Positions 208 to 38,691 of a stretch of 38,691 bases of DNA are shown here, in pieces; the stretch's first letter is position 1; every line of letters starts with the position of its first letter. Where the stretch lies: IMG/VR virus record IMGVR_UViG_3300026902_000002. One strand, given 5' to 3'. The notes below the pieces were generated by a model. That model was not told the DNA's origin. It made no database searches and saw only the letters and a list, made by a program, of their open reading frames with translations. The stretch is from a virus. Made by a program: the position numbers and the translations under genes.

Positions 208-288
208 TGTGACAGATGTGACAGATGTGACAGATGTGACAGATGTGACAGATGTGACAGATGCGGCACATGTGACAGATGTGACAGA
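208..288 (+). repeat. 9-bp iteron array TGTGACAGA x9 head-to-tail (8 perfect; unit 262-270 degenerate, TGCGGCACA)
   Basis: Direct reading; units start at 208, 217, 226, 235, 244, 253, 262, 271 and 280. Confidence 0.95.
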
Positions 289-338
289 ATGGCAACATTG
301 ACTAAACCATAACAAATTCAATGATTTACGTGCCCACA

Positions 339-423
339 TGTGACAGATGTGACAGACAAAAATTCAAAAATCTGAAATTTAAACTTCAATGAATTCAATG
401 AGTTAGGCGTTCTCTTGTGACAG
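339..423 (+). repeat. Three further direct TGTGACAGA iterons (339-347, 348-356, 415-423)
   Basis: Exact 9-mer matches to the 208-288 array. Confidence 0.9.
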
Positions 424-450
424 AATTCCTTGCGCACGCGAAAAACCCCA

Positions 451-501
451 TTTTTAGACCTTTTTCTTGTTCTTTTCCACTTTTGCATCTTTTCCCACTT
501 T
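451..501. other. Six T-tracts phased at about 10 bp (starts near 451, 461, 473, 481, 490, 499); predicted intrinsically bent DNA
   Basis: Direct reading of the T3-T5 runs. Their spacing is close to the helical repeat, and they lie between the direct and inverted iterons. Confidence 0.6.
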
Positions 502-505
502 CTGC

Positions 506-596
506 GTGACTTTGTCACAAATGGCCCTCTAAACCATTGATTCTTATATAATTTTAATCAAATTTTTGTCTGTCACACTCGCGACATTCTGTCACA
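506..596 (-). repeat. Inverted-orientation iterons: palindrome GTGAC-TTT-GTCAC (506-518) and exact TCTGTCACA at 569-577 and 588-596
   Basis: TCTGTCACA is the reverse complement of TGTGACAGA. Confidence 0.9.
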
Positions 597-683: not shown

Positions 684-711
684 TTTACATTACCGCTAAC
701 TGATATATACT
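684..711 (+). promoter_or_regulatory. Candidate sigma70-type early promoter: -35 TTTACA (684-689), 16-nt spacer, -10 TATACT (706-711)
   Basis: Hexamer match read by eye. It sits about 35 nt upstream of the first early ORF. Confidence 0.45.
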
Positions 712-2654: not shown

Positions 2655-3245
2655 AAAAACTACACAGTCAATGAGGTTCTAAAAATTGCAGAATATGACG
2701 AAGAATCGTGGGTCTATTTTGTGGAGGCAGACGGCGAAGACATTACAATAACAGTAAGTGAATGGGACGGTGATTACAATTATGGTATGCGCGGTGATAA
2801 AGACGGGTCGATCACACTTGATGGTCCGGGGAACGGCTCAGTCTATCGCAAAGGCCATGGGAATGGGCACGCTTGGCGTTTTGGTACTGGCAACGGATCG
2901 GCTTATCGTACTGGCGCGGGCGATGGTTCAGCCTTTCGTACTGGCGTAGGTGAGGGGTCGGCGTATCGTTTTGATTCTGGTGACGGTACGGCATTCCGAG
3001 ATAATCTAGGATCCGGATATGCGGTTCGTGAGGGTGGCGATATTAAATCAGAGGAGGCAAAAATGGAAAAAGTAACTGAAGAAAATTCAGATGAACGGGC
3101 AGCGTATTTGACCACGTGCGAGCTGTGGCTTACAGAAAACACCCCGTTGCGCGAAGAGCTTGCGTATCGAGATGGCCATAAAGCTGGATGGAATAACGCG
3201 ATTAAACAAATGGGAAAACTAATAGACGGGAAAGTTTTATCATGA
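2652..3245 (+). CDS. 197-aa protein with seven tandem 10-residue Gly-rich repeats (G-x-G-[NDE]-G-S-A-[YFW]-R-x); probable beta-solenoid, unknown function
   Basis: ORF 2625..3245 trimmed to the ATG in the conserved cassette. Repeats: GPGNGSVYRK GHGNGHAWRF GTGNGSAYRT GAGDGSAFRT GVGEGSAYRF DSGDGTAFRD NLGSGYAVRE. Confidence 0.8.
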   Translation: MKNYTVNEVLKIAEYDEESWVYFVEADGEDITITVSEWDGDYNYGMRGDKDGSITLDGPGNGSVYRKGHGNGHAWRFGTGNGSAYRTGAGDGSAFRTGVGEGSAYRFDSGDGTAFRDNLGSGYAVREGGDIKSEEAKMEKVTEENSDERAAYLTTCELWLTENTPLREELAYRDGHKAGWNNAIKQMGKLIDGKVLS

Positions 3246-3949
3246 AGATTGAAATTAAACGCAGTAGCGGCAGTCGAGTTTTATTCTCACACGAAGCAGA
3301 AGACAATTCGATGAGACTTACTTTAACCGCAGCACGGTATGCTGGAGCAAACTTGACTGGAGCAAACTTGACTGGAGCTGATTTGACTAGAGCTGATTTG
3401 ACTAATGCAAATTTGACTATAGCTGATTTGACTAATGCAAATTTGACTAGAGCTGATTTGACTAATGTAAATTTGACTGGAGCTGATTTGACTAGAGCTG
3501 ATTTGACTAATGTAAATTTGACTGGAGCAAACTTGACTGATGCTGATTTGACTAATGCAAATTTGACTAGAGCTGATTTGACTAATGTAAATTTGACTGG
3601 AGCTGATTTGACTAGAGCTGATTTGACTAATGTAAATTTGACTGGAGCAAACTTGACTGATGCTAAGCTATCGGGCGCGATGATTGAAGGGTATTGCTTG
3701 TTAATCGGTCAGCGCCCGATATTTCAAATCGGGCCCATTGGTTCACGCTGCGACTACTTTACTGCTTACGTCACAGATAAGGGGCTGAGGTTCGACGCAG
3801 GCTGTCAGAGGCAAATTACGCGCGAAATCTTTGAGTCTCGTCTACATAATGGTCATGGCGATAATATGCATGCTGCTGAATATAAAGCTGCATTAGCTCT
3901 AATTGATATACATGCGGAAATTTGGAGAAACGACAACGTGGAGGAATAA
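3242..3949 (+). CDS. 235-aa pentapeptide-repeat protein (about 24 A[DN]LT[GNRD] repeats) with an unrelated ~90-aa C-terminal domain
   Basis: ORF track; ATGA overlap with the upstream stop. The textbook A(D/N)LXX repeat runs from ANLTGANLTGADLTRADL to ANLTDAKLSGA. Confidence 0.9.
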   Translation: MKIEIKRSSGSRVLFSHEAEDNSMRLTLTAARYAGANLTGANLTGADLTRADLTNANLTIADLTNANLTRADLTNVNLTGADLTRADLTNVNLTGANLTDADLTNANLTRADLTNVNLTGADLTRADLTNVNLTGANLTDAKLSGAMIEGYCLLIGQRPIFQIGPIGSRCDYFTAYVTDKGLRFDAGCQRQITREIFESRLHNGHGDNMHAAEYKAALALIDIHAEIWRNDNVEE

Positions 3950-4266: not shown

Positions 4267-4646
4267 AAGACTGGGTGCCTAAGGCTATAAGGTTTTTTAA
4301 ATGCGTCGGTAACACGATAGGCTTAGCAGCAAAACCATCCAAATACGACATTTATTACAAAACGTCTACGCCCGTGACTTTAACAATGAACGGCAAGGTA
4401 TATAGATTGTCGGATGTATCGTATAAGGATAAGACATATAAGGCCGGAATTGTAGCAGTGGGCAATGATGTATATAGGTTTGAATATGATCTAATATATC
4501 GTGGCTATTTGATCAATGGCGGTAATGGGGTCAGGTTGTATACCGCTACGGATGACTTATTGACGGCAAAATCGTATTTGTTTAATTACTTACTTGAGCA
4601 GTCAGACATGAAACGACAAGCACAAGAGGAGGATGTTGCAAAATGA
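4263..4646 (+). CDS. 127-aa protein, unknown function
   Basis: ORF track; ATGA overlap with the upstream gene. Confidence 0.7.
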   Translation: MKDWVPKAIRFFKCVGNTIGLAAKPSKYDIYYKTSTPVTLTMNGKVYRLSDVSYKDKTYKAGIVAVGNDVYRFEYDLIYRGYLINGGNGVRLYTATDDLLTAKSYLFNYLLEQSDMKRQAQEEDVAK

Positions 4647-4831
4647 AAATTCAATCACTTAGTCAGATTCAGGAGTTATCCATAAGTAACCGTAGCGCCC
4701 AGTGCAGGCAGTGTAGGGGGCGATGGTTTGATGGAAGCGGTGAGTACTTGCGCATTAGGCAGTTTGGTTTATGTGCAAAGTGTGTAGCAGATACGACAAA
4801 TAATTCTACAATTATTACAGAGAAGGAGTAA
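4643..4831 (+). CDS. 62-aa putative zinc-ribbon protein (CRQC..17 aa..CAKC)
   Basis: ORF track; ATGA overlap; two CxxC pairs. Confidence 0.65.
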   Translation: MKIQSLSQIQELSISNRSAQCRQCRGRWFDGSGEYLRIRQFGLCAKCVADTTNNSTIITEKE

Positions 4832-8732: not shown

Positions 8733-8756
8733 GGGGGCTACGGCCCCCTTTTCTTT
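8733..8756. terminator. Bidirectional intrinsic terminator: GGGGGC-TACG-GCCCCC stem-loop flanked by T-runs on both strands
   Basis: A 6-bp GC stem with a 4-nt loop, followed by TTTTCTTT on the + strand and AGTTTTAATTT on the - strand. It sits between convergent genes and overlaps the primase stop codon. Confidence 0.75.
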
Positions 8757-11212
8757 GCCGAAGGGTTCTTCTTTGGGATAGCATCAAAGATTTCCTTAAT
8801 TTGCGCTTTTGATTTAATTACGGCAGCGCGATACTCAGCAAATTCACTGGCAAGTCTTGGGTTTATTGCGTAATTCGCAGTTTTTCCATCGGGTGGGAGT
8901 TGTGCCACGTATCCAGCATCACACAAATCGGCCATTATATACTGCAATGTCATGTCGATGTCTTTGGTGTCCATGTTTTCGGTCTGTCGCCTGCTCGATC
9001 TTTTTATGTCAGCAATTCGGATTGTGTCACGTACTCCAGAATTTTGCACAATGTGATCAATCACCCATCTTGTCAAAGTTGACTCTGTGGAAACTACATC
9101 ATTGAACGCATACTTCATCGACGGAATAAAAAACTTCATCATGCAGTCAACAGCCTGCTGCATTGTTTCACCAGGCATGGCCACTATAGAAGGCGCCTGA
9201 ATAATGTGAAACACGAGTGCCAAACGTAGACATGTTCCTTCTGATTTACCCAGTGCTGTCATGTAATGCTTGGATGATTTCGTTATTATTTCCGCGCGTC
9301 TTAATTCAAGATACCATTTGCAAAAGGTTCGGAATATTTCTCTCGCTGCCGGTGATAAACTGTACTCAACTTGAGGAAGGTTAAAAATTGCCCTAATGAG
9401 TTTCTCATATTCGCCCTTCCTTGTCATAAACGAGGGTGCGTCATCTTGCCAAAGCGTGGTTTTTTCTCTGTCTATGGTTACTGGCAGGAATCGCTGCATT
9501 AAGCCATCGGCGCTACCTTGTTCAATGTGCCGTTTGAAAACGTCTGGTTGGATATTGCCGTATATTGTTACAGCAAGGTTTTCCGCACTGATTGTTCCAG
9601 TTGTCACCCTATCCATTGTGTAACTGCCAGTTTCATACCCTTGAATCCAACATCCCCTATCTTCTCCCGACTGTGGGCTGTTGATGCGCTTTAGCCAGTT
9701 TTCCATTTCGTCGAGTAATAGCAAAAACCCACGTGGTCTACCATCGGCCAGGTGGATTACCTTCTGGCTTGTTGCGTCGTTGATGATCAACCTCAGTTGT
9801 TTTGGTTCTGGTGGTAACTCAGATACAAAGGGTGGCGGCGAGTTGGACAGTTCCATTTCAGCCGAACCATAGAATTGCTGGAAGGCTTTCATCTGGGATA
9901 CGTGCTTGGCCTCGTGGCCTTTCCATATGAGTGCTTCAGCCCTATACCGTGGAAAATCCTCTTCTTGAATATCGTATAAAATACTGTGCAGTGGCTTACT
10001 GCCGGGTGATTTTTTGTCAGACGATAGGCCGATTGTCATTAGCCACAAAATCGGCGGCACTGTCCAGGACTCAGTAACTCTTAACTTGGTTCTGCTATCC
10101 ACTGCCGCACATACGGAAGACAATGCAGCCAGCAATGGAACAACTGGGTCACTTCCAACCATTGTTGCTACTTCAAGCGCCCGCGCTGCAATAATCTCGG
10201 GGAATAATGATAAATCGCACACGGGTTGAGCTGGTGCAGTTTGGAAATTTCCAAGGAATGTCGCTGGACAAGCAATGCTCTTAATGTTGCCGAATAACTT
10301 TGATGCATCTGTTGCCATCCACCCGTTCTCACGAGCGTAATAAAATAGGGTGTCTATCCTGATTCCCCTATTCGTCATCGACTTGAACGATCTCCACACC
10401 GTGCGGATATCTCGCTCGCCTTTGTACTTATCTTTGGACTTAGCTGACCAAGTGTTGAATAACATCAGTGCCGCGTCATTGTCACCAATCACTTCCCCCG
10501 CGTGATGCAGTGCCATCCCCACATGAACCCACTCTGCCCGCGATATGCTCGGATCAATGAACTCCAGCGCACTACGAATAGTCTCCAGCTCAATCAGCTT
10601 CGGATCGCTTGGTGGCAATCCCTCATCCGTGTGACTGATCAGTGAGTGCCATAGCTCAACAAGTGCTTGTGGCATTGTTGGCAGATTGTCAAAACTCCCA
10701 TTCCCGCCCCATTCATAACTACGGTTTGTGTCTGGATGGATTGAAGGCGGCAATACGTCCTGTGCAGTAAGACCACCGGCGGTGGCGCACCTGAAGTCAA
10801 TGAAGTTGTACTTGGTGCCATCTGGGGCGGTAGCGATTAGTTTCTTCGACACCATGGGAAGGCCAAATGGCAGGTTGTATAATAGTTTAGTGTGGCCTTC
10901 TCGACCTGATTCAATCCTGACTGCATCTGGTGCGCCAAGAAGCGCGTTTAGGTCAATCCCATGGGAAGCCAAGTACGCCGTAGCATCATCCAGTGCGTCA
11001 ATGTCTATGGCTGCTGTACCACTGTAGGCGTGAGCAAGTCCGATGTTCCACCCTTCTGGAATTCGACCTGAATCAGTTATGCAGTTTCCAGACTCATTCC
11101 ATCCTTTAGTTGATGGGCCTTTTTGACCAGGCGGGATTGGAACAAGGTGCCAACCTAAAGAAGTGTACGAGTCAAAAAGGGTGACTAGTTCATTGTTTGC
11201 TGCGAGTGGCAT
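8738..11212 (-). CDS. Primase-helicase: N-terminal PrimPol domain, PriCT-2-like middle region, DUF3987-like C-terminal region (824 aa)
   Basis: LGWHLVPIPPGQKGPSTKGW and AAIDIDALDD (PrimPol); AEWVHVGMALHHAG (PriCT-like); LLLLDEME (Walker-B-like). The track ORF starts at a TTG (11248), so I prefer the ATG at 11212. Confidence 0.8.
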   Translation of the reverse strand: MPLAANNELVTLFDSYTSLGWHLVPIPPGQKGPSTKGWNESGNCITDSGRIPEGWNIGLAHAYSGTAAIDIDALDDATAYLASHGIDLNALLGAPDAVRIESGREGHTKLLYNLPFGLPMVSKKLIATAPDGTKYNFIDFRCATAGGLTAQDVLPPSIHPDTNRSYEWGGNGSFDNLPTMPQALVELWHSLISHTDEGLPPSDPKLIELETIRSALEFIDPSISRAEWVHVGMALHHAGEVIGDNDAALMLFNTWSAKSKDKYKGERDIRTVWRSFKSMTNRGIRIDTLFYYARENGWMATDASKLFGNIKSIACPATFLGNFQTAPAQPVCDLSLFPEIIAARALEVATMVGSDPVVPLLAALSSVCAAVDSRTKLRVTESWTVPPILWLMTIGLSSDKKSPGSKPLHSILYDIQEEDFPRYRAEALIWKGHEAKHVSQMKAFQQFYGSAEMELSNSPPPFVSELPPEPKQLRLIINDATSQKVIHLADGRPRGFLLLLDEMENWLKRINSPQSGEDRGCWIQGYETGSYTMDRVTTGTISAENLAVTIYGNIQPDVFKRHIEQGSADGLMQRFLPVTIDREKTTLWQDDAPSFMTRKGEYEKLIRAIFNLPQVEYSLSPAAREIFRTFCKWYLELRRAEIITKSSKHYMTALGKSEGTCLRLALVFHIIQAPSIVAMPGETMQQAVDCMMKFFIPSMKYAFNDVVSTESTLTRWVIDHIVQNSGVRDTIRIADIKRSSRRQTENMDTKDIDMTLQYIMADLCDAGYVAQLPPDGKTANYAINPRLASEFAEYRAAVIKSKAQIKEIFDAIPKKNPSAKKRGP

Positions 11213-11241
11213 CGTACATACCTTTTTATTTGAGTAGAGGG

Positions 11242-11271
11242 TTGACAATATAGATCATCCCGTTCTACAAT
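11242..11271 (+). promoter_or_regulatory. Near-consensus sigma70 promoter for the replication operon: -35 TTGACA, 18-nt spacer, -10 TACAAT
   Basis: TTGACA at 11242-11247 and TACAAT at 11266-11271, upstream of the RHH gene. Confidence 0.6.
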
Positions 11272-11275
11272 TCAA
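11247..11275 (-). promoter_or_regulatory. Divergent promoter for the primase gene: -35 TTGAAT, 17-nt spacer, -10 TATATT (minus strand)
   Basis: Reverse complement of 11270-11275 and 11247-11252. Its -10 overlaps the -35 of the rightward promoter. Confidence 0.5.
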
Positions 11276-11304
11276 TAACATTTGTGAAACGTGAGGTAAA
11301 TACA

Positions 11305-11484
11305 ATGAAGATTCGACATGATCGCTTCCTCGGTACGAGGGTTACAGAGGATACATATGACCTATTTGTACAGAAGGTGATGCGGCTGCCAGTAGATCGT
11401 TCACAAGTGTTACGTGAATTAATAGAATCATTCGTCGAAGACCGGGTGATAATCGTACCATCAAACAAGAGGATATTAAAATGA
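11305..11484 (+). CDS. 59-aa ribbon-helix-helix (CopG/Arc-like) DNA-binding protein
   Basis: A candidate beta-strand FLGTRVTE followed by two helices (TYDLFVQKV, RSQVLRELIESFV). ORF 11284 (GTG) trimmed to the ATG that follows GAGG. Confidence 0.6.
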   Translation: MKIRHDRFLGTRVTEDTYDLFVQKVMRLPVDRSQVLRELIESFVEDRVIIVPSNKRILK

Positions 11485-14057: not shown

Positions 14058-15899
14058 ATGTCAATTATATGGGATATTGAAACCTTCCCCAACTGTTTCA
14101 CGTTGGCGGCGGAGCACTCCTGCGCACCATTTAAGTGGATGTTTGAAATTAGTGAATTCCGAGATGATACATCCGACCTTTTCCAATGGTGTGAGTGGTT
14201 GGCAAAGAATGATTACTCAATGGTCGGATTTAATAACATAGGGTTTGATTATATAGTCCTGCACGCGATATTGAGTAACCGTGGAATGCCACCTGGTGAT
14301 ATATACAGGCTTGCCATGGACATAATTGAAGCTGATGACAATGAGAAATTTAAGTTCATTATTTACCCTGATGCCAGATACATAAAACAAATTGACCTCA
14401 TGCGTGTACATCACATGGACAACAAATCAAGACGCACGAGTCTGAAGAAGTTGGAATTTGCAATGAGGTTGGACAATGTATGCACGATGCCTGTTCCATT
14501 TGGTACGCGCCTGACCAAGCCCCAGATTGAGGTACTAAAGCAATATAACGAAAACGACGTACATGCCACCAAGCAGTTCTATAAAGCGAGCGCGAAAGCA
14601 CTAGAGTTTCGCAATGAGCTTAGCCAAAAGTACGGACGGGATTTTTCCAACCATAGCGATGTGGGCATAGGCAAAGACTTCTTTGTGTCAAGATTGGAGG
14701 CAGCTGGCATAGCCTGTTACGACTATTCATCTGGACGCAGAGCACCAAAACAAACAATCAGGAAAGAGATTGTGCTGAATGACGCAATCCTTAAATGGAT
14801 AAAATTCGATCATCCAGAATTCACCAGAATAATCAATTGGCTAAGGAGTCAGGTAGTTACTGAGACAAAAGGTGTGTTCGAGGACTTGACTGCAACAGTT
14901 GGCGGTCTCACCTATGTCTTCGGGATGGGCGGAATACACGCATCCGTCAACAACAGGATTTATGAATCCGATGCAGATCGTTTAATTGTAGACATCGATG
15001 TTGAAGGGTATTACCCGACTACAGGGATTGTTCAGGGGTTCAGGCCAGCCCACTACCCTAAAGAATTTAGTGACATATGGCGCGATATCAAACATCAAAG
15101 ATCTTTGTACAAAAAGGGCACAGCGGAAAATGGCGTGTATAAGTTGGCAGCTAACGGCGCATTCGGTGACATGAATTCCCAATACAGCGTGTTCTATGAC
15201 ACATTGTCCTTCTGTCAAATCACACTCAATGGCCAGATGCTAATGTGTCTGCTTATCGAAAAATTAATCCTCATCGAAGGACTTGATGTAATTCAGGCCA
15301 ACACTGACGGCATCACCGTGTACATCAAGCGGGAAGTACTACCGGAATTAAACTACGCAGTATCCCAGTGGGAAAAACTAACGCAGTTGAAAATGGAGAA
15401 TAACAATTACTCCAAAATGTTCATCAGGGATGTCAATAACTATATTGCGGTGCATGAGGATGGGACAATTAAGCGTAAAGGCGCATATGATTATGCTCCA
15501 GGGTGGCACCAGGATCATGGAATGCTTGTTGTGGCAAAGGTCGCAGAGCAGGTACTCCTTCATGGGAAACCAATTCGGGAAACACTGGAAAACTGGCCAG
15601 ATATCTACGATTTCATGAAGTGCGCAGTAATACCAGCATCGAGTAAGCTATTCTACAACTACAGGCTACCTGATCAGCGACAACTGGAGAACACTCAGCG
15701 GTACTACGTATCGACCACAGGTGGGAAACTTACCAAGGTTATGCCACCACTTCCAAAGAAACCGGATACAGAAAGACCCATTGGTATCGTTTCAGACTGG
15801 ACTGTTTGTCCATGTAATGATATTTCCGATGCAAATCAGCCCATTGACTACGACTACTACGCCCAAGAGGTAGAGAAACTATGTCTATGTCTTGCTTGA
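14058..15899 (+). CDS. DNA polymerase with a DEDD 3'-5' exonuclease domain (613 aa)
   Basis: Exonuclease motifs: ExoI WDIETFPN, ExoII NNIGFDYIVL, ExoIII YNENDVHAT. Palm motifs resemble family B: DIDVEGYYPT (compare DxxSLYPS), KLAANGAFG (compare KxxxNSxYG), QANTDGI (compare DTDS). Confidence 0.85.
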   Translation: MSIIWDIETFPNCFTLAAEHSCAPFKWMFEISEFRDDTSDLFQWCEWLAKNDYSMVGFNNIGFDYIVLHAILSNRGMPPGDIYRLAMDIIEADDNEKFKFIIYPDARYIKQIDLMRVHHMDNKSRRTSLKKLEFAMRLDNVCTMPVPFGTRLTKPQIEVLKQYNENDVHATKQFYKASAKALEFRNELSQKYGRDFSNHSDVGIGKDFFVSRLEAAGIACYDYSSGRRAPKQTIRKEIVLNDAILKWIKFDHPEFTRIINWLRSQVVTETKGVFEDLTATVGGLTYVFGMGGIHASVNNRIYESDADRLIVDIDVEGYYPTTGIVQGFRPAHYPKEFSDIWRDIKHQRSLYKKGTAENGVYKLAANGAFGDMNSQYSVFYDTLSFCQITLNGQMLMCLLIEKLILIEGLDVIQANTDGITVYIKREVLPELNYAVSQWEKLTQLKMENNNYSKMFIRDVNNYIAVHEDGTIKRKGAYDYAPGWHQDHGMLVVAKVAEQVLLHGKPIRETLENWPDIYDFMKCAVIPASSKLFYNYRLPDQRQLENTQRYYVSTTGGKLTKVMPPLPKKPDTERPIGIVSDWTVCPCNDISDANQPIDYDYYAQEVEKLCLCLA

Positions 15900-32644: not shown

Positions 32645-33448
32645 TTAGTATACCCGGCCTTCCCGATACGCCAACGCTATTTCGTCCTGATTGGCCTCGT
32701 ACTTTGCCGGATCTGTGATTTGCATTCTGATTAAACTCTGCCGACTAAATCGCTTCTTCGTTGTTTCTCCAGCTCCACCTACGTCAACTGAGGCTGCACG
32801 TATTGCAGAAGATCGAGATTCTCTATCTGCCTCACTTGTATCCGCTCTGCTGCTATTTGCGGCAACCTTTCTCAATTGCTTGAATGTGGAAAACAGTTCG
32901 TTCCCTGCGTCGAGGTCATAATCGACGGCCTGTTTGTACAAGGCTGTTCGGATCTTGCTTGCTGTAACCCACTCATTGAATGCAGGGTCGTTTACTATCT
33001 GACCTGCGTCTGGATGAAGTTCGTCAAATTCCCGCTTGATTTGTGCTCTCTGTGCAAGCAGTGCGTATTCTTGCGTGGCTTTGACGATTGGATTACTTTC
33101 AATAGATCTACGAACAGCCTCTTCTGGGTTATCAAAAAAGTCCAACTTATCGTCAGGTTCTTTTTCAGGCGGTTGTGAAATTTGTGATTTTATTAACTGG
33201 TCTGCCAGCTTCCTAACTTCTCCCACCTCTTGAGCGTGCCTACTGGCGAGTCTTTCCGCCTCTTGGTGCATCTTGATGACGTCTTGGATTGCTTTACCTT
33301 TGTATTTCTCAGGTACGTCATCTACAGGTGGAGCTTCTGGCGTAATAACGGGTTCGCTTGGTTGTAGTTGGTTATCAACTGCCTCGGATTCGTCACCAGC
33401 TTCATAAAGATCATCTACTATTTCAACCACTTTCGTTCTCCTGCCCAT
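32645..33448 (-). CDS. Scaffolding protein (267 aa, acidic, helical)
   Basis: Position between the portal and capsid genes; E/D/K/Q-rich. Confidence 0.65.
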   Translation of the reverse strand: MGRRTKVVEIVDDLYEAGDESEAVDNQLQPSEPVITPEAPPVDDVPEKYKGKAIQDVIKMHQEAERLASRHAQEVGEVRKLADQLIKSQISQPPEKEPDDKLDFFDNPEEAVRRSIESNPIVKATQEYALLAQRAQIKREFDELHPDAGQIVNDPAFNEWVTASKIRTALYKQAVDYDLDAGNELFSTFKQLRKVAANSSRADTSEADRESRSSAIRAASVDVGGAGETTKKRFSRQSLIRMQITDPAKYEANQDEIALAYREGRVY

Positions 33449-33537
33449 CTTGGGTTATAGGAATTTAAATAATCCTCCGGCCAAATGGCTTATGGAGGAG
33501 ATGTTATTCTTCTACCACTATACTACGCGATTGTCAA

Positions 33538-33786
33538 CTACTCATTGGCACCTTCCCTTTGTCGTTTCGCAGCGTTCCGCCTTGCGTGCTTTTCTCGAAT
33601 CGTTGCCCACTTATCATGGGCCGATGGAAAGTGTCCGGATGTTCCATCAAGTCGTATTGTGGGAGTAGATATAATTCGCATCGCCTTTCCTCCGCACTCG
33701 CAATCAACCACCTTCTCCTTGTGATTGATGAACTTCTCTTTCACTGTTCCACAAGACTTACATGCAAAATCAAGCATTATCCTCAT
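33538..33786 (-). CDS. 82-aa FmdB-like zinc-ribbon protein (CKSCG ... CECGG)
   Basis: ORF 33538..33807 trimmed to the ATG that follows GAGGAA. Confidence 0.55.
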   Translation of the reverse strand: MRIMLDFACKSCGTVKEKFINHKEKVVDCECGGKAMRIISTPTIRLDGTSGHFPSAHDKWATIREKHARRNAAKRQREGANE

Positions 33787-33790
33787 TTCC

Positions 33791-34039
33791 CTATTCCTCT
33801 GGCTCATCCTTGGGCGTAGTCAATTCATCGAATACTGCCTCACTTAGATCCTTTAGCGACAACATCCAACGTAGCACACTCATTTCACCTTGTTTGAACG
33901 TAAGTGTGTCCACGGTCACTCCATCCAATCGGTTAGTCGCATCTGCGGCTTTCTGAAGATCTTCCATCAGGTCTTTCCAGCCTTTTGTCTCAAACATTTT
34001 GAATCGCTCGATATAATAGTCCTCAAGTTCCTTATTCAT
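33791..34039 (-). CDS. 82-aa acidic late protein, unknown function
   Basis: ORF track; overlaps the portal stop. Confidence 0.6.
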   Translation of the reverse strand: MNKELEDYYIERFKMFETKGWKDLMEDLQKAADATNRLDGVTVDTLTFKQGEMSVLRWMLSLKDLSEAVFDELTTPKDEPEE

Positions 34040-36057: not shown

Positions 36058-37326
36058 CTAAAATCCACATATTTCATCCATCACTATGTAGTTGTAGTCA
36101 TCGTTATTGCGATTTCCGCCATATGGGACGGTAACCAGGTGCGCAATCATTGATAAGGAATCCAAAAGGTCATCGTGAGTACGAGGTGATGGGAATGCGA
36201 TCATTTCTCGTCTGAACTGATCCCAATTCTCATTCACGTTGAACTCTATTCGACCATGCTCCATCATCCCCTGAAGCGCGTATGATATCCTATTGATCTT
36301 TGATGAGCCGCTTGTTGAAATTGGCTTGATATTTGGGTAAACCATGTTGTTCTTGCGCATCAAGTCTGTGAAGTAGGGAAGAAACGCCCTTGCCAACGAT
36401 CCACGCTCTATTCCAATACTCAGTGGCTTAAATGTACGGATTGCCATCATCACGCGAACGGACGCTTCCCTGACGTCCCACCGACCATAATCTATCTTAT
36501 GTACCCACCATTTGCCAGTAGGGGTAACTTTTACTATCGCAATTGCAAAATTATCAAGATGCTTTTTCTTTTTCGGGTCAATTACGCTTTCAAATCCCGC
36601 TGGGTCAATAGTTATGTAATAATCCCCTTCTATTGGGTCAGGGCCATGCTTAAACCATTCCATCTTTAATAAATTGGCCCCGGATGTAAACCTGTTGGCC
36701 ATATATTCTTGCTCAAATACCGCTGTAGATAGGGTGCGTTTGGCAGTCTCTATTTCATCTCGATCGATCGTTTCATTGTCATAGGTGGTCAATAGCGTAG
36801 CAGTCCAGTCCTTGTCCACTCCACTTTCGGCATAATCGAACAAGTCATTGAACTGGTTGTCACCTGGTTCAGGTGTTCCAATAAACATTGCCCCACCCTT
36901 CATATCCGTAAGCGCAGGGCGTATTACCATAGGCCAAACATCAGGCTTGAAATCTTTTATTTCATCGAGAACAACAAAGTACAGCTTTAATCCACGTAGG
37001 TTATCCGGCTTATCCGCACCAGCGACATAGATAGTCACCCCATTGATCAGTGTCACTTCCATGTGGGTGTTACTTACTGATCGAATAATCGACTTTCCTT
37101 GTTCGAGTATGGCGTTCCATGCCAAACGTCTAGCCATGGCTTGTGTGGGCGCAACATAGGCTACGCCAGCCGTCTTATCTGGGCACTCTATGCCCTTTAT
37201 CAAAGCCTTCTTAATAGCCCCGCTGGTCTTACCGCACCGTCTGCCCGCCATGATTACAGAAAACCGAGGGTTCTTCTTGAACTCCTTCATTTGCCAGTTG
37301 AGTAATTCAAACCTCAAATCGGCCAT
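36058..37326 (-). CDS. terL: Terminase large subunit (422 aa)
   Basis: Walker A MAGRRCGKTS, Walker B YFVVLDEIKD, and a C-terminal nuclease-type ITIDPAG. Confidence 0.9.
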   Translation of the reverse strand: MADLRFELLNWQMKEFKKNPRFSVIMAGRRCGKTSGAIKKALIKGIECPDKTAGVAYVAPTQAMARRLAWNAILEQGKSIIRSVSNTHMEVTLINGVTIYVAGADKPDNLRGLKLYFVVLDEIKDFKPDVWPMVIRPALTDMKGGAMFIGTPEPGDNQFNDLFDYAESGVDKDWTATLLTTYDNETIDRDEIETAKRTLSTAVFEQEYMANRFTSGANLLKMEWFKHGPDPIEGDYYITIDPAGFESVIDPKKKKHLDNFAIAIVKVTPTGKWWVHKIDYGRWDVREASVRVMMAIRTFKPLSIGIERGSLARAFLPYFTDLMRKNNMVYPNIKPISTSGSSKINRISYALQGMMEHGRIEFNVNENWDQFRREMIAFPSPRTHDDLLDSLSMIAHLVTVPYGGNRNNDDYNYIVMDEICGF

Positions 37327-37859
37327 CAGTCATTTCCAATTAAGAATGGGTCATCGTTATCAATTGTTAGCCCTGTATTGGCTTTCGGAGTAATGCCATC
37401 AATGAATATATTGACCTGCTTGTCCGACGTATTGGCAACTTCCCGCTTATCCCCATAGGTGTCTCTATCCCACACACCAAGAAGCCATTTGCGGGTGTCG
37501 AGTTGCAGTTTGGAGCGGTACACATCCTTATCAACGTCGTCTGCAATGCGCAGCATCTCGTCTTCCACACAGTGGGCGCCAATCTTCTTGGCCGCCTTGT
37601 ATGTCTTACTTCGGGCATCGTCGTTGTGAACCCAACGTCTAAATCCAGTGATATCGAGGTTTGTTTCTCTTTCGGCAATTTCACGGAGTAGTTCAGAAAG
37701 CGGTCTTCCTGATTCTAGTTGGGGAAGGATACGGGTGAAGATTATATCGTAGTTGTATTCTCTTGATTCGCGTGCGTCCTTTGCTGACATCATAGGCTGC
37801 GGCTGTGCCGATTCAGCATCCGTCATTTCCGATATGATGGTCATATCCGACTTTAACAT
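37326..37859 (-). CDS. terS: Terminase small subunit (177 aa)
   Basis: Directly upstream of, and overlapping, terL. Motif SKLQLDTRKWLLGVWDRDTYGDK is typical of small-terminase families. Confidence 0.7.
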   Translation of the reverse strand: MLKSDMTIISEMTDAESAQPQPMMSAKDARESREYNYDIIFTRILPQLESGRPLSELLREIAERETNLDITGFRRWVHNDDARSKTYKAAKKIGAHCVEDEMLRIADDVDKDVYRSKLQLDTRKWLLGVWDRDTYGDKREVANTSDKQVNIFIDGITPKANTGLTIDNDDPFLIGND

Positions 37860-38164: not shown

Positions 38165-38261
38165 ATGTCACCTATTTAATGTAAAGTTACTGCTAATTTC
38201 AAAAAAGCTGTGCTAGATTTTCTGGTGGTGGTACTACAAGTGTGACACTCTATCGACGAGT

Positions 38262-38401
38262 CTCCCCCCCCCCTGTGCGCCGGTCCGGTCGGTGGCTGGC
38301 CGGGTGTCGCGGGCAGTGCGCGGTTGAGCGCGGCGCGTGCCTCCTGGTGCAGTGTGGTGCGTGTGGTGCGGTGGTGCTGTGGTGCTGTGGTGCGGCGGTG
38401 C
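38262..38401. other. GC-rich island: a C10 run, a GC-rich core, then an 8-bp periodic array of TGGTGC motifs. Flanked by TGTGACAC at 38241-38248 and 38402-38409.
   Basis: Direct reading. The composition contrasts sharply with the rest of the window. Confidence 0.85.
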
Positions 38402-38458
38402 TGTGACACACGATATGCGATCAATAATAATTTGGGATTTTCGGGATTTTAAGATAGT

Positions 38459-38691
38459 CATTCGCTCATTCGTTCAGTCATTCAATCGCTCAGTCATTCG
38501 CTCATTCGTTCAGTCATTCAATCGCTCATTCGTTCAGTCATTCAATCGCTCAGTCATTCAGTCATTCAGTCATTCAATCGCTCATTCGTTCAGTCATTCA
38601 ATCGCTCATTCGTTCAGTCATTCAATCGCTCATTCGTTCAGTCATTCAATCGCTCATTCGTTCAGTCATTCAATCGCTCATTCGTTCAGTC
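38459..38691. repeat. Tandem array, right part: variant 8-, 16-, 24- and 28-nt modules followed by 4 perfect 24-bp units and 10 nt
   Basis: Direct reading; AGTCATTC x3 at 38552-38575; 38586-38691 equals 1-106. Confidence 0.95.

Follow-up and report, generated by a model that had tools for sequence, protein, structure and literature searches.

The viral genome record IMGVR_UViG_3300026902_000002 of IMG/VR, 38,691 nucleotides long and called the window here in its whole length, carries a cluster of 9-bp repeats, or iterons, at positions 208-596. The core of this cluster, at about 339-596, appears, by a balance that tips only a little in favour, to be the replication origin of the phage. It would be a bipartite origin of the iteron type, read by the phage's own protein of 836 residues with PrimPol, MCM-like helicase and winged-helix domains. 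Since every one of the elements that carry the repeats needs an origin, this is the only explanation that covers all of their contexts. By analogy, it also seems to fit an architecture that has been defined experimentally, down to the two units per ~18 bp. The repeats, their layout and conservation, the recurrence of the module beside primase-helicase genes and the domain structure of the protein are observed; from these we infer the identity of the repeat-binding protein and the start of replication at this site. The bipartite iteron origin is a design already known from phage satellites, and the window is most likely a further case of it.

An earlier note on this DNA, made from the sequence alone, described fifteen 9-bp iteron copies at 208-596. 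Fifteen units are present, but only 13 are exact copies of TGTGACAGA, 11 on the plus strand and two on the minus strand, and the remaining two, at 262-270 and 511-519, are degenerate. The nine units said to lie head-to-tail at 208-288 are all found on the plus strand, eight of them exact and that at 262-270 degenerate, and Tandem Repeats Finder gives a period of 9 with 9.1 copies at 207-288. Two of the three further direct units stand as described (339-347 and 348-356), but the third lies at 416-424 and not at 415-423. The GTGAC-TTT-GTCAC palindrome at 506-518, the exact inverted units at 569-577 and 588-596 and the TGTGACAC copies at 38241 and 38402 are all where they had been placed. By simple arithmetic, a given 9-mer is expected about 0.3 times on both strands of the whole genome (2 x 38.7 kb). 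With at most one mismatch, TGTGACAGA is matched 26 times in the genome, against 9.2 +/- 3.3 times in shuffles, none of 100 shuffles reaching 26, and 14 of the 26 matches fall within 208-596. The absence of any coding explanation is also borne out: this non-coding region contains no open reading frames (ORFs) other than those that read through the repeat on the antisense strand.

The units form two opposed sets, with at least two on each side, around an A+T-rich region (66.5% A+T in 357-568, against 53.7% in the genome), as in the origins of Staphylococcus aureus pathogenicity islands (SaPIs), phage-inducible chromosomal islands (PICIs) and P4. The consensus WATCAANNNNTTR for integration host factor (IHF) is matched three times in the whole genome, and two of these matches lie inside the iteron region, at 530-568, where they would suit any higher-order nucleoprotein complex. 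No DnaA box with at most one mismatch occurs in 1-760, and GATC is not enriched.

The close relative IMGVR_UViG_3300042741_000050 (also L321) is about 95% identical to the window over 270-720. It retains the units at 280, 339, 348, 416, 569 and 588 together with the palindrome, with one unit in place of the window's nine. Leftward of ~270 it continues into ~460 nt of unrelated sequence, without the 24-bp tandem array in which the window begins. A variant, L320, is 95% identical in its early genes but only ~75% identical in the iteron region, and the nine-unit array is absent from it. Within 330-610, L320 agrees with the window at 52 of 59 iteron positions (88%) and at 152 of the 226 others (67%; Fisher p = 0.001); the iterons appear to be under selection relative to the spacers. 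The right-hand pair keeps its 19-bp spacing and its cores there, despite a different spacer sequence, the arms of the palindrome are kept around a spacer changed from TTT to TCT, and unit 339 is retained, while the second unit (348) is replaced by ATGTACAGC. The block at 416-478 takes in an iteron, the GC box TTGCGCACGCGAA and the first part of a pyrimidine tract; it is identical at 59/64 positions in L320, with the GC box unchanged. By the alignment, both IHF-consensus matches are kept in the close relative and the first (530-542) is kept in L320; the outlying TGTGACAC copy at 38241 is kept in the close relative, and that at 38402 is not.

This pattern in the close relative and L320 places the functional core at about 339-596 and marks 208-288 as lineage-specific. 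As read from the alignments, the conserved core comprises five or six units, and the nine-unit array is a lineage-specific expansion rather than part of that core. L317 and L318 contain the whole array without any difference, and the contigs L319 and L324 start inside it and match onward, so that it is the same in four independent samples wherever it is covered. The earlier note had named an array absent or freely variable in close relatives among the findings that would refute an origin: the array is reduced to one unit in the close relative and missing from L320, and is constant in the four samples. In L320, at 130-600, the iteron forms part of a longer, 19-bp composite, TGTGACAGAATGTACAGCC, with five copies in both orientations, and L011 has a mixture of CTGTCACA and CTGTACACA, as with the L320 composite; together these sequences hint at a second half-site.

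The primase-helicase of the window has 828 homologues at E <= 1e-10. For comparison with the wider group, 80 related viral loci were fetched, whose primase-helicases are 42-52% identical, and the count of clusters covers 82 sequences, the window and 81 related loci. TGTGAC clusters with both orientations are found in 16 of the 82. Exact GTGACAG clusters among the 80 relatives occur only in the near-identical one; the conservation of the 9-mer in related phages to which the earlier note had looked thus extends to the TGTGAC core but not to the full word. The inspected clusters have a module in common, in which GTGAC units and a GC-rich box are followed by ~70 nt rich in A+T and then by GTCAC units (GTCACattGTCACa). 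Its counterpart in the window is 416-519: the iteron at 416-424 matches the left GTGAC units of distant relatives, the relatives' GC box 'tccgcgcggga' holds the same place in the module as 430-442, and the relatives have GTCACattGTCACa where the window has the palindrome 506-519. In relatives of this group (many of L157-L235; L177 at 14500-15200; L236, which is DSL-LC05, at 33300-34000), the palindromes CCCATTGGG, CCCAGTGGG or CCCAGCGGG, of the form CCCA(N)TGGG, also occur, in 5-12 copies. One copy lies over the -35 hexamer of a promoter in L177 and one between -35 and -10 in DSL-LC05. From their sequence and place, these palindromes are likely the operators of a repressor; the window has none.

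The same word recurs outside the group. Two tandem units (18 nt) are present in 15 viral and 111 genomic stretches, and clusters of at least four core copies in both orientations within ~800 bp are found in 9/16 viral loci (~7 of them independent) and 32/111 genomic loci. A permuted control 18-mer is present in 27 viral stretches, and none of these 27 has such a cluster. The recurring layout is 2-3 direct units, an A+T-rich spacer of 50-110 bp and 2-3 inverted units. In nine loci unrelated to the window, a primase-helicase gene ends directly at the cluster. The products of these genes are P4-like Toprim_3/D5_N/DUF5906/Pox_D5 proteins in L019, L027, L034 and L113 (in L017, which has such a protein, the cluster is 1 kb away), Bacteroidales BT4734_N/VapE/DUF3874 proteins in L125, L102, L101 and L029, and a DUF3854 protein in L106. 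No terminase gene is in view at the Bacteroidales loci, whose surroundings are HU-like, glycosyltransferase and transposase genes, or at L027, an AlpA-primase island. Among 80 P4-like primase homologues examined, several show this architecture immediately behind the gene, built from other words (TGTAACG, TGTGCAA, TGTGACG, TGTGACA), so that origins with TGT... words, TGTGACA included, are a point of likeness between these relatives and the window. All-against-all BLASTP of the ORFs found no protein family common to all cluster-bearing loci; the largest shared families (integrase, TerL, P4-like primase and VirE-like) cover five loci each.

Several of these loci have features of their own. In L106, at 353-1050, a 240-bp bipartite module (three direct GTGACAG units, a spacer and three inverted units) stands in three tandem copies beside the 748-aa DUF3854 protein, and to judge by its sequence it looks like a triplicated origin. 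In L125, L102, L101, L029 and other Prevotellaceae/Bacteroidaceae loci (L023, L052, L080, L110 and others), TGTGACAGATGTGACAGA, a spacer of ~55-100 bp and TCTGTCACATCTGTCACA follow VirE-like BT4734/VapE/DUF3874 genes, near HU-like, glycosyltransferase or transposase genes. This element occurs several times per metagenome-assembled genome (MAG), and some copies lie by unrelated housekeeping genes (uvrB, hipA, dnaX). L001, an unrelated viral contig of 67% G+C, has at 10900-11210 ten core copies, including three tandem units and palindromic pairs with TTTTTAAAAA as the spacer; they stand directly upstream of a gene for an Sf6-like small terminase subunit (terS). L002, a match for three tandem units, is irrelevant, as its repeat is coding (DVTDVT).

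The candidate initiator has PrimPol, PriCT-2 and DUF3987 domains by Pfam and PHROGs. Its helicase part (residues 340-720; 9089-10231, minus strand) is modelled with a pLDDT of 94, and the top Foldseek matches of the model are archaeal and eukaryotic MCM proteins and ComM, the best with an E value of 7e-6 and a query-normalised TM-score of ~0.5. The model suggests that DUF3987, a Pfam family annotated as unknown, is an MCM-like AAA+ helicase. The C-terminal 137 residues (pLDDT 83) are predicted to fold as helix, strand, helix, helix, strand, strand, which is the topology of a winged helix, and the top Foldseek matches are nearly all winged-helix proteins (MarR, PadR, an ORC subunit), though weak, with E values of 0.008-0.1. 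As far as the models go, the protein thus has the AAA+ helicase (SF3 or SF6/MCM-like) and C-terminal winged helix of the known initiators, and the order primase, AAA+ helicase, winged helix fits a self-loading initiator. At the sequence level, this DUF3987-family protein matches no solved structure, and a search of the window with a P4-like primase hidden Markov model (HMM) found nothing.

In SaPIs, the 6-12 iterons of the origin follow immediately after rep, the centre is A+T-rich, and each side has at least two iterons, opposed in direction to those of the other side; the reader is the C-terminal winged helix of the Rep helicase, which is of the SF3 or the MCM-like (SF6) kind, a 19-bp duplex fits two iterons, and one hexamer is thought to load per side (PMC9371898). 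Gram-negative PICIs have the same build, and their rep-ori segment replicates autonomously (PMC6092414). The window resembles both in its opposed sets of short iterons, its A+T-rich centre, its two units in ~18-19 bp and its total of about a dozen, and its candidate initiator resembles theirs in combining a primase, an AAA+ helicase (SF3 or MCM-like SF6) and a C-terminal winged helix. Unlike them, the window has units of 9 bp and not 5-6 bp and an extra nine-unit array on one side, its iterons lie between the terS operon and the early operon, and the element is a full-size phage of ~38.5 kb and not a satellite.

P4 alpha and pRN1 ORF904 have in common the order primase, SF3 helicase, winged helix (PMC2777425). 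Like P4 ori/crr, the window has octamer-sized iterons in both orientations, which in P4 are read by the C-terminal winged helix of the primase-helicase. The P4 iteron is TGTTCACC, and crr is a second repeat cluster; the nine-unit array, as a second cluster nearby, could have an auxiliary, crr-like role. The comparison with P4 alpha drawn in the earlier note holds in so far as the phage encodes a primase-helicase ending in a predicted winged helix. It does not extend to the protein itself, which has a PrimPol (AEP) and not a Toprim primase, an MCM-like and not an SF3 helicase, and a winged helix not detectably homologous to that of P4. Strict membership of the P4 ori/crr class is rejected, as the TGTTCACC word, the Toprim primase and the SF3 helicase are not matched and the C-terminal profiles show no homology. 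MCM-like helicases of bacterial mobile elements are known in SCCmec Cch and SaPIbov1-type Rep2 (PMC9371898). The window's protein shares with these an MCM-clade AAA+ helicase on a bacterial mobile element, and differs in that DUF3987 is known here from sequence and model and that its link to an iteron origin is putative. The Bacillus cereus prophage protein BcMCM is a primase-MCM fusion with an AEP primase domain, a fusion that the window's protein also has. A classic plasmid iteron origin of the Rep_3/RepA type (F, pSC101, R6K, P1), with a Rep_3-type initiator, DnaA boxes and direct iterons of 17-22 bp placed at about the helical repeat, does not fit the contiguous 9-bp units in both orientations, and no Rep_3-type protein is present among the proteins scanned, which were non-structural ones. 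The iteron-type origin proposed in the earlier note is accordingly the best-supported reading, with its opposed sets, conserved iterons, recurrence beside primase-helicases and predicted winged helix, but it is of the SaPI/PICI/P4 type and not of the classic plasmid type.

In the mechanism proposed, the iterons would act as two opposed sets, the direct units 339, 348 and 416 facing the inverted units 511-519, 569 and 588, with the GC box and the pyrimidine-rich, easily melted tract (430-505) between the innermost units. The 836-aa protein would recognise the iterons through its C-terminal winged helix and load itself, one hexamer per side, melting the centre, and its own PrimPol domain would prime synthesis. 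The two IHF-like sites may aid DNA bending. The array at 208-288 may have grown recently, by slippage, out of the outermost left iteron, and probably provides extra initiator-binding sites, as an enhancer or titration site, that are not essential.

Several observations weigh against an origin read in this manner. The winged helix of the window's family shows no detectable homology to the C-termini of the P4-like or DUF3874 proteins (hhalign probability 0.1), which speaks against a shared winged helix as the common reader and leaves the shared iteron word unexplained. The putative recognition helix, as read from sequence and model, is acidic and hydrophobic. Unlike in SaPIs and PICIs, the iterons lie 8 kb from the primase-helicase gene, with only 27 bp after the gene's 3' end; a cluster immediately downstream of such a gene, as SaPI and PICI origins are of rep/pri-rep, is found in nine other loci with the same word but not in the window. 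DSL-LC05 is without GTGAC arrays, and some clusters stand in plain intergenic stretches of chromosomes where no replication gene can be seen nearby. GC skew, with its minimum at ~804 and its maximum at ~17124, is uninformative as an origin marker; it reflects gene orientation, since the primase gene on the opposite strand shows the skew of its own coding strand. The placement of the module relative to terS, taken up next, counts on the same side.

The region could be a pac site, with a central cleavage region flanked on either side by units that the Sf6-like TerS would bind, and with the first headful cut made there by the large subunit, but this seems unlikely. Pac sites with repeats are known in SPP1 (pacL/pacR) and P1 (the pac hexamers), and repeats flanking a central site are a pac-type layout too. 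The module is upstream of terS, by ~1.25 kb in the window and by ~170-700 bp in every group relative with terS in view, where it lies between terS and the divergent early operon. In L001, the ten core copies stand immediately upstream of terS, whose product is the only protein visibly shared with the window, and the cluster is also upstream of terminase genes in L015 and L017 and ~1 kb downstream of them in L005. Co-occurrence with the terminase pair thus holds in the window's group and L001, but fails overall: the same word and layout stand beside primase-helicase genes at loci without terminase (the Bacteroidales VirE/HU loci and the island L027), and the TerS candidates found by the clusters belong to families that are not detectably related (Sf6-like, Terminase_4 and HTH_28-type), which also speaks against TerS as a shared reader. 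Moreover, a 9-bp period would put successive sites off one helix face, unlike what wrapping around a TerS ring would need, and a separate conserved C-rich box closer to terS could serve as pac. 

Transcriptional control is another improbable function, in which a small DNA-binding protein, the candidate being a 59-aa product resembling ribbon-helix-helix (RHH) proteins, would polymerise on the units and control the divergent early and late promoters, as omega does. The omega protein of pSM19035 binds contiguous heptads in either orientation, and RHH operators typically consist of contiguous short direct and inverted units, such as those of the window; WATCACW, the heptad that omega binds, is similar to the GTCACA core. 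The region does lie between divergent operons, with an early promoter at 684-711, and the GTGACA within unit 569-577 resembles a -35 hexamer with a weak leftward promoter match. Elsewhere, the L005/L009/L014 family has an RHH gene and promoter directly beside the cluster, and in L006, L019 and L113 the cluster is just upstream of a late-regulator gene (a weak, below-cut-off DUF1492 Pfam match in L006, the same reading frame in L019 and L113). The earlier note had offered an operator array on the early promoter, but no unit overlaps that promoter, the closest ending at 596, 88 bp upstream of the -35 hexamer, and the palindromes at the promoters of DSL-LC05 and L177 are of the different, CCCA(N)TGGG type. 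Only one RHH-like ORF is found, at 11305-11484, not the two mentioned in that note, and its strand-helix-helix pattern is our own reading of the sequence, with no match to Pfam or, in a sequence-profile search, to a solved structure. This ORF is kept in 43 relatives, with the strand motif FL(T/V)VR(V/I/L), and is preceded by a consensus promoter, TTGACA-18-TACAAT (11241-11269). Its strand residues show no visible covariation with motif type or with presence of the TGTGAC cluster. Among the other small early proteins, no repressor or other DNA-binding family was detected except for a sub-threshold zinc-ribbon match at 4643-4831. Regulation would also leave the clusters abutting primase-helicase 3' ends unexplained. 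Head-to-tail arrays of short repeats are, in addition, typical centromeres for RHH partition proteins, but that the array is the partition centromere of a plasmid-like prophage, of the parC/omega type, is highly improbable. No ParA, ParM or ParB-like protein and no integrase is present among the proteins scanned, the genome resembles a P22-like podovirus with its own replisome, and, unlike omega/ParR-parC arrays, the window has no partition ATPase and no promoter overlap, its unconfirmed RHH-like ORF being 11 kb away.

A separate possibility, which is doubtful but carries some weight, concerns the nine-unit array alone: it would be a neutral, microsatellite-like expansion of one iteron, and only the core at 339-596 would be functional. 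The close relative has exactly one unit there in flanks that are ~95% identical, L320 has none, and one of the nine units has already decayed to TGCGGCACA. However, the constancy of the array in four independent samples argues that it is not in rapid flux, and extra initiator sites near origins often modulate firing, examples being the incompatibility repeats of plasmids and crr of P4.

The window is a complete phage genome, cut within a 24-bp tandem array, TCGTTCAGTCATTCAATCGCTCAT (1-127 and 38458-38691), which has an 8-bp sub-period. In L318, an uninterrupted contig of the same phage, the two ends overlap within one continuous array of ~9-10 units, which places the repeats in a single intergenic region of ~1.1 kb, flanked by terS and a 71-aa gene on the side of the late operon and by the early operon on the other. 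The early promoter-like site is kept in the close relative and L320. The genome has the appearance of a P22-like podovirus with its own replisome. Its only named relative is DSL-LC05, also a P22-like podovirus, whose primase is 44.5% identical; a DNA similarity search of 1-1200 against known phages gave no match, and a full-text literature search for the 9-mer returned primer noise only. The other larger intergenic region, at 11249-11304 by the primase gene, has the consensus promoter and no iterons. Next to the outlying iteron copies, 38260-38410 is an island of 73.5% G+C in a genome of 46% G+C, with a 12-C run and repeats of the form (GTGGTGCG)n. At this position, between terS and the iteron module, the phage group, DSL-LC05 included, keeps a C-rich box, CCCTCCCCCaCCCCCT, which could on its sequence be the real pac site or another signal. 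Among the early genes, 3242-3949 encodes a pentapeptide-repeat protein (Pfam PF00805, E 7e-40), and its 15-bp tandem repeat of ~21 copies (3345-3658) is coding. Coordinates of the main features are collected in Table 1.

Table 1. Features of the iteron region and related genes, in window coordinates.
Feature	Position	Strand	Remarks
Exact TGTGACAGA units	starts 208, 217, 226, 235, 244, 253, 271, 280, 339, 348, 416	+	
Exact TGTGACAGA units	569-577, 588-596	-	
Degenerate unit of the tandem run	262-270		unit nine of the run; TGCGGCACA, 3 mismatches to TGTGACAGA
One-mismatch unit	511-519	-	TGTGACAAA
Left-hand direct iteron pair	339-356	+	two contiguous units, 18 bp
Inner left iteron	416-424	+	starts the most conserved block
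GC-rich box	430-442		TTGCGCACGCGAA; left edge of the central region
Pyrimidine-rich tract	443-505	+	63 nt, 79% pyrimidines; candidate unwinding and helicase-loading site
GTGAC-TTT-GTCACA palindrome	506-519		GTGAC-TTT-GTCAC is 506-518; inner right iteron 511-519 (-), TGTGACAAA, plus one flipped core
Putative IHF sites	530-542 and 556-568	- and +	consensus WATCAANNNNTTR; 26 bp apart, start to start
Right-hand inverted iteron pair	569-577 and 588-596	-	starts 19 bp apart
Early promoter-like site	684-711	+	sigma-70-like, TTTACA-16-TATACT; -35 hexamer starts at 684
Right flank		+	promoter-like site 684-711, then early genes
Candidate initiator, 836 aa	8738-11248	-	PrimPol, PriCT-2, DUF3987 (predicted MCM-like AAA+ helicase), predicted C-terminal winged helix
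Replication genes			the 836-aa PrimPol/PriCT-2/DUF3987 gene (8738-11248, -), DUF2800 exonuclease, Enc34-type single-stranded-DNA-binding protein, DNA polymerase, SNF2 helicase (Pfam, PHROGs)
RHH-like ORF, 59 aa	11305-11484	+	head of the replication operon; alternative candidate repeat binder
TerS, Sf6-like small terminase subunit	37326-37859	-	Pfam PF20901, E 1.5e-16
Left flank		-	71-aa membrane-protein gene, Sf6-like terS 37326-37859, terL, structural genes
Outlying TGTGACAC copies	38241-38248 and 38402-38410	+	flank the 73.5% G+C island

The recurrence of one iteron word and layout beside non-homologous initiators, even in plain chromosomal intergenic DNA, is the part that the origin reading leaves unexplained. 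The initiators beside which the word is found are unrelated, and its range extends from chromosomal VirE loci of Bacteroidales to a MAG that is assigned to the archaeal Micrarchaeota. That GTGACAG and the bipartite layout are a shared, cross-phylum origin code of mobile elements whose initiators are not homologous (P4-like SF3, VirE/VapE-like, DUF3854 and PrimPol-MCM-like) is a speculative idea and rather unlikely. If it were true, either all would have a common reader, such as a factor of the host or a small domain that sequence profiles do not detect, or winged helices would have converged repeatedly on a single word, and the chromosomal intergenic copies could be orphan or mobile origin cassettes. 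If the core at 339-596 is the origin of the phage, it would give a concrete, testable origin to a large group of P22-like phages of ~38 kb that has hardly been studied, and DUF3987 would gain a function, that of a self-loading, MCM-like helicase whose C-terminal winged helix binds the origin. The origin design of the SaPI and PICI satellites would then extend to full phages.

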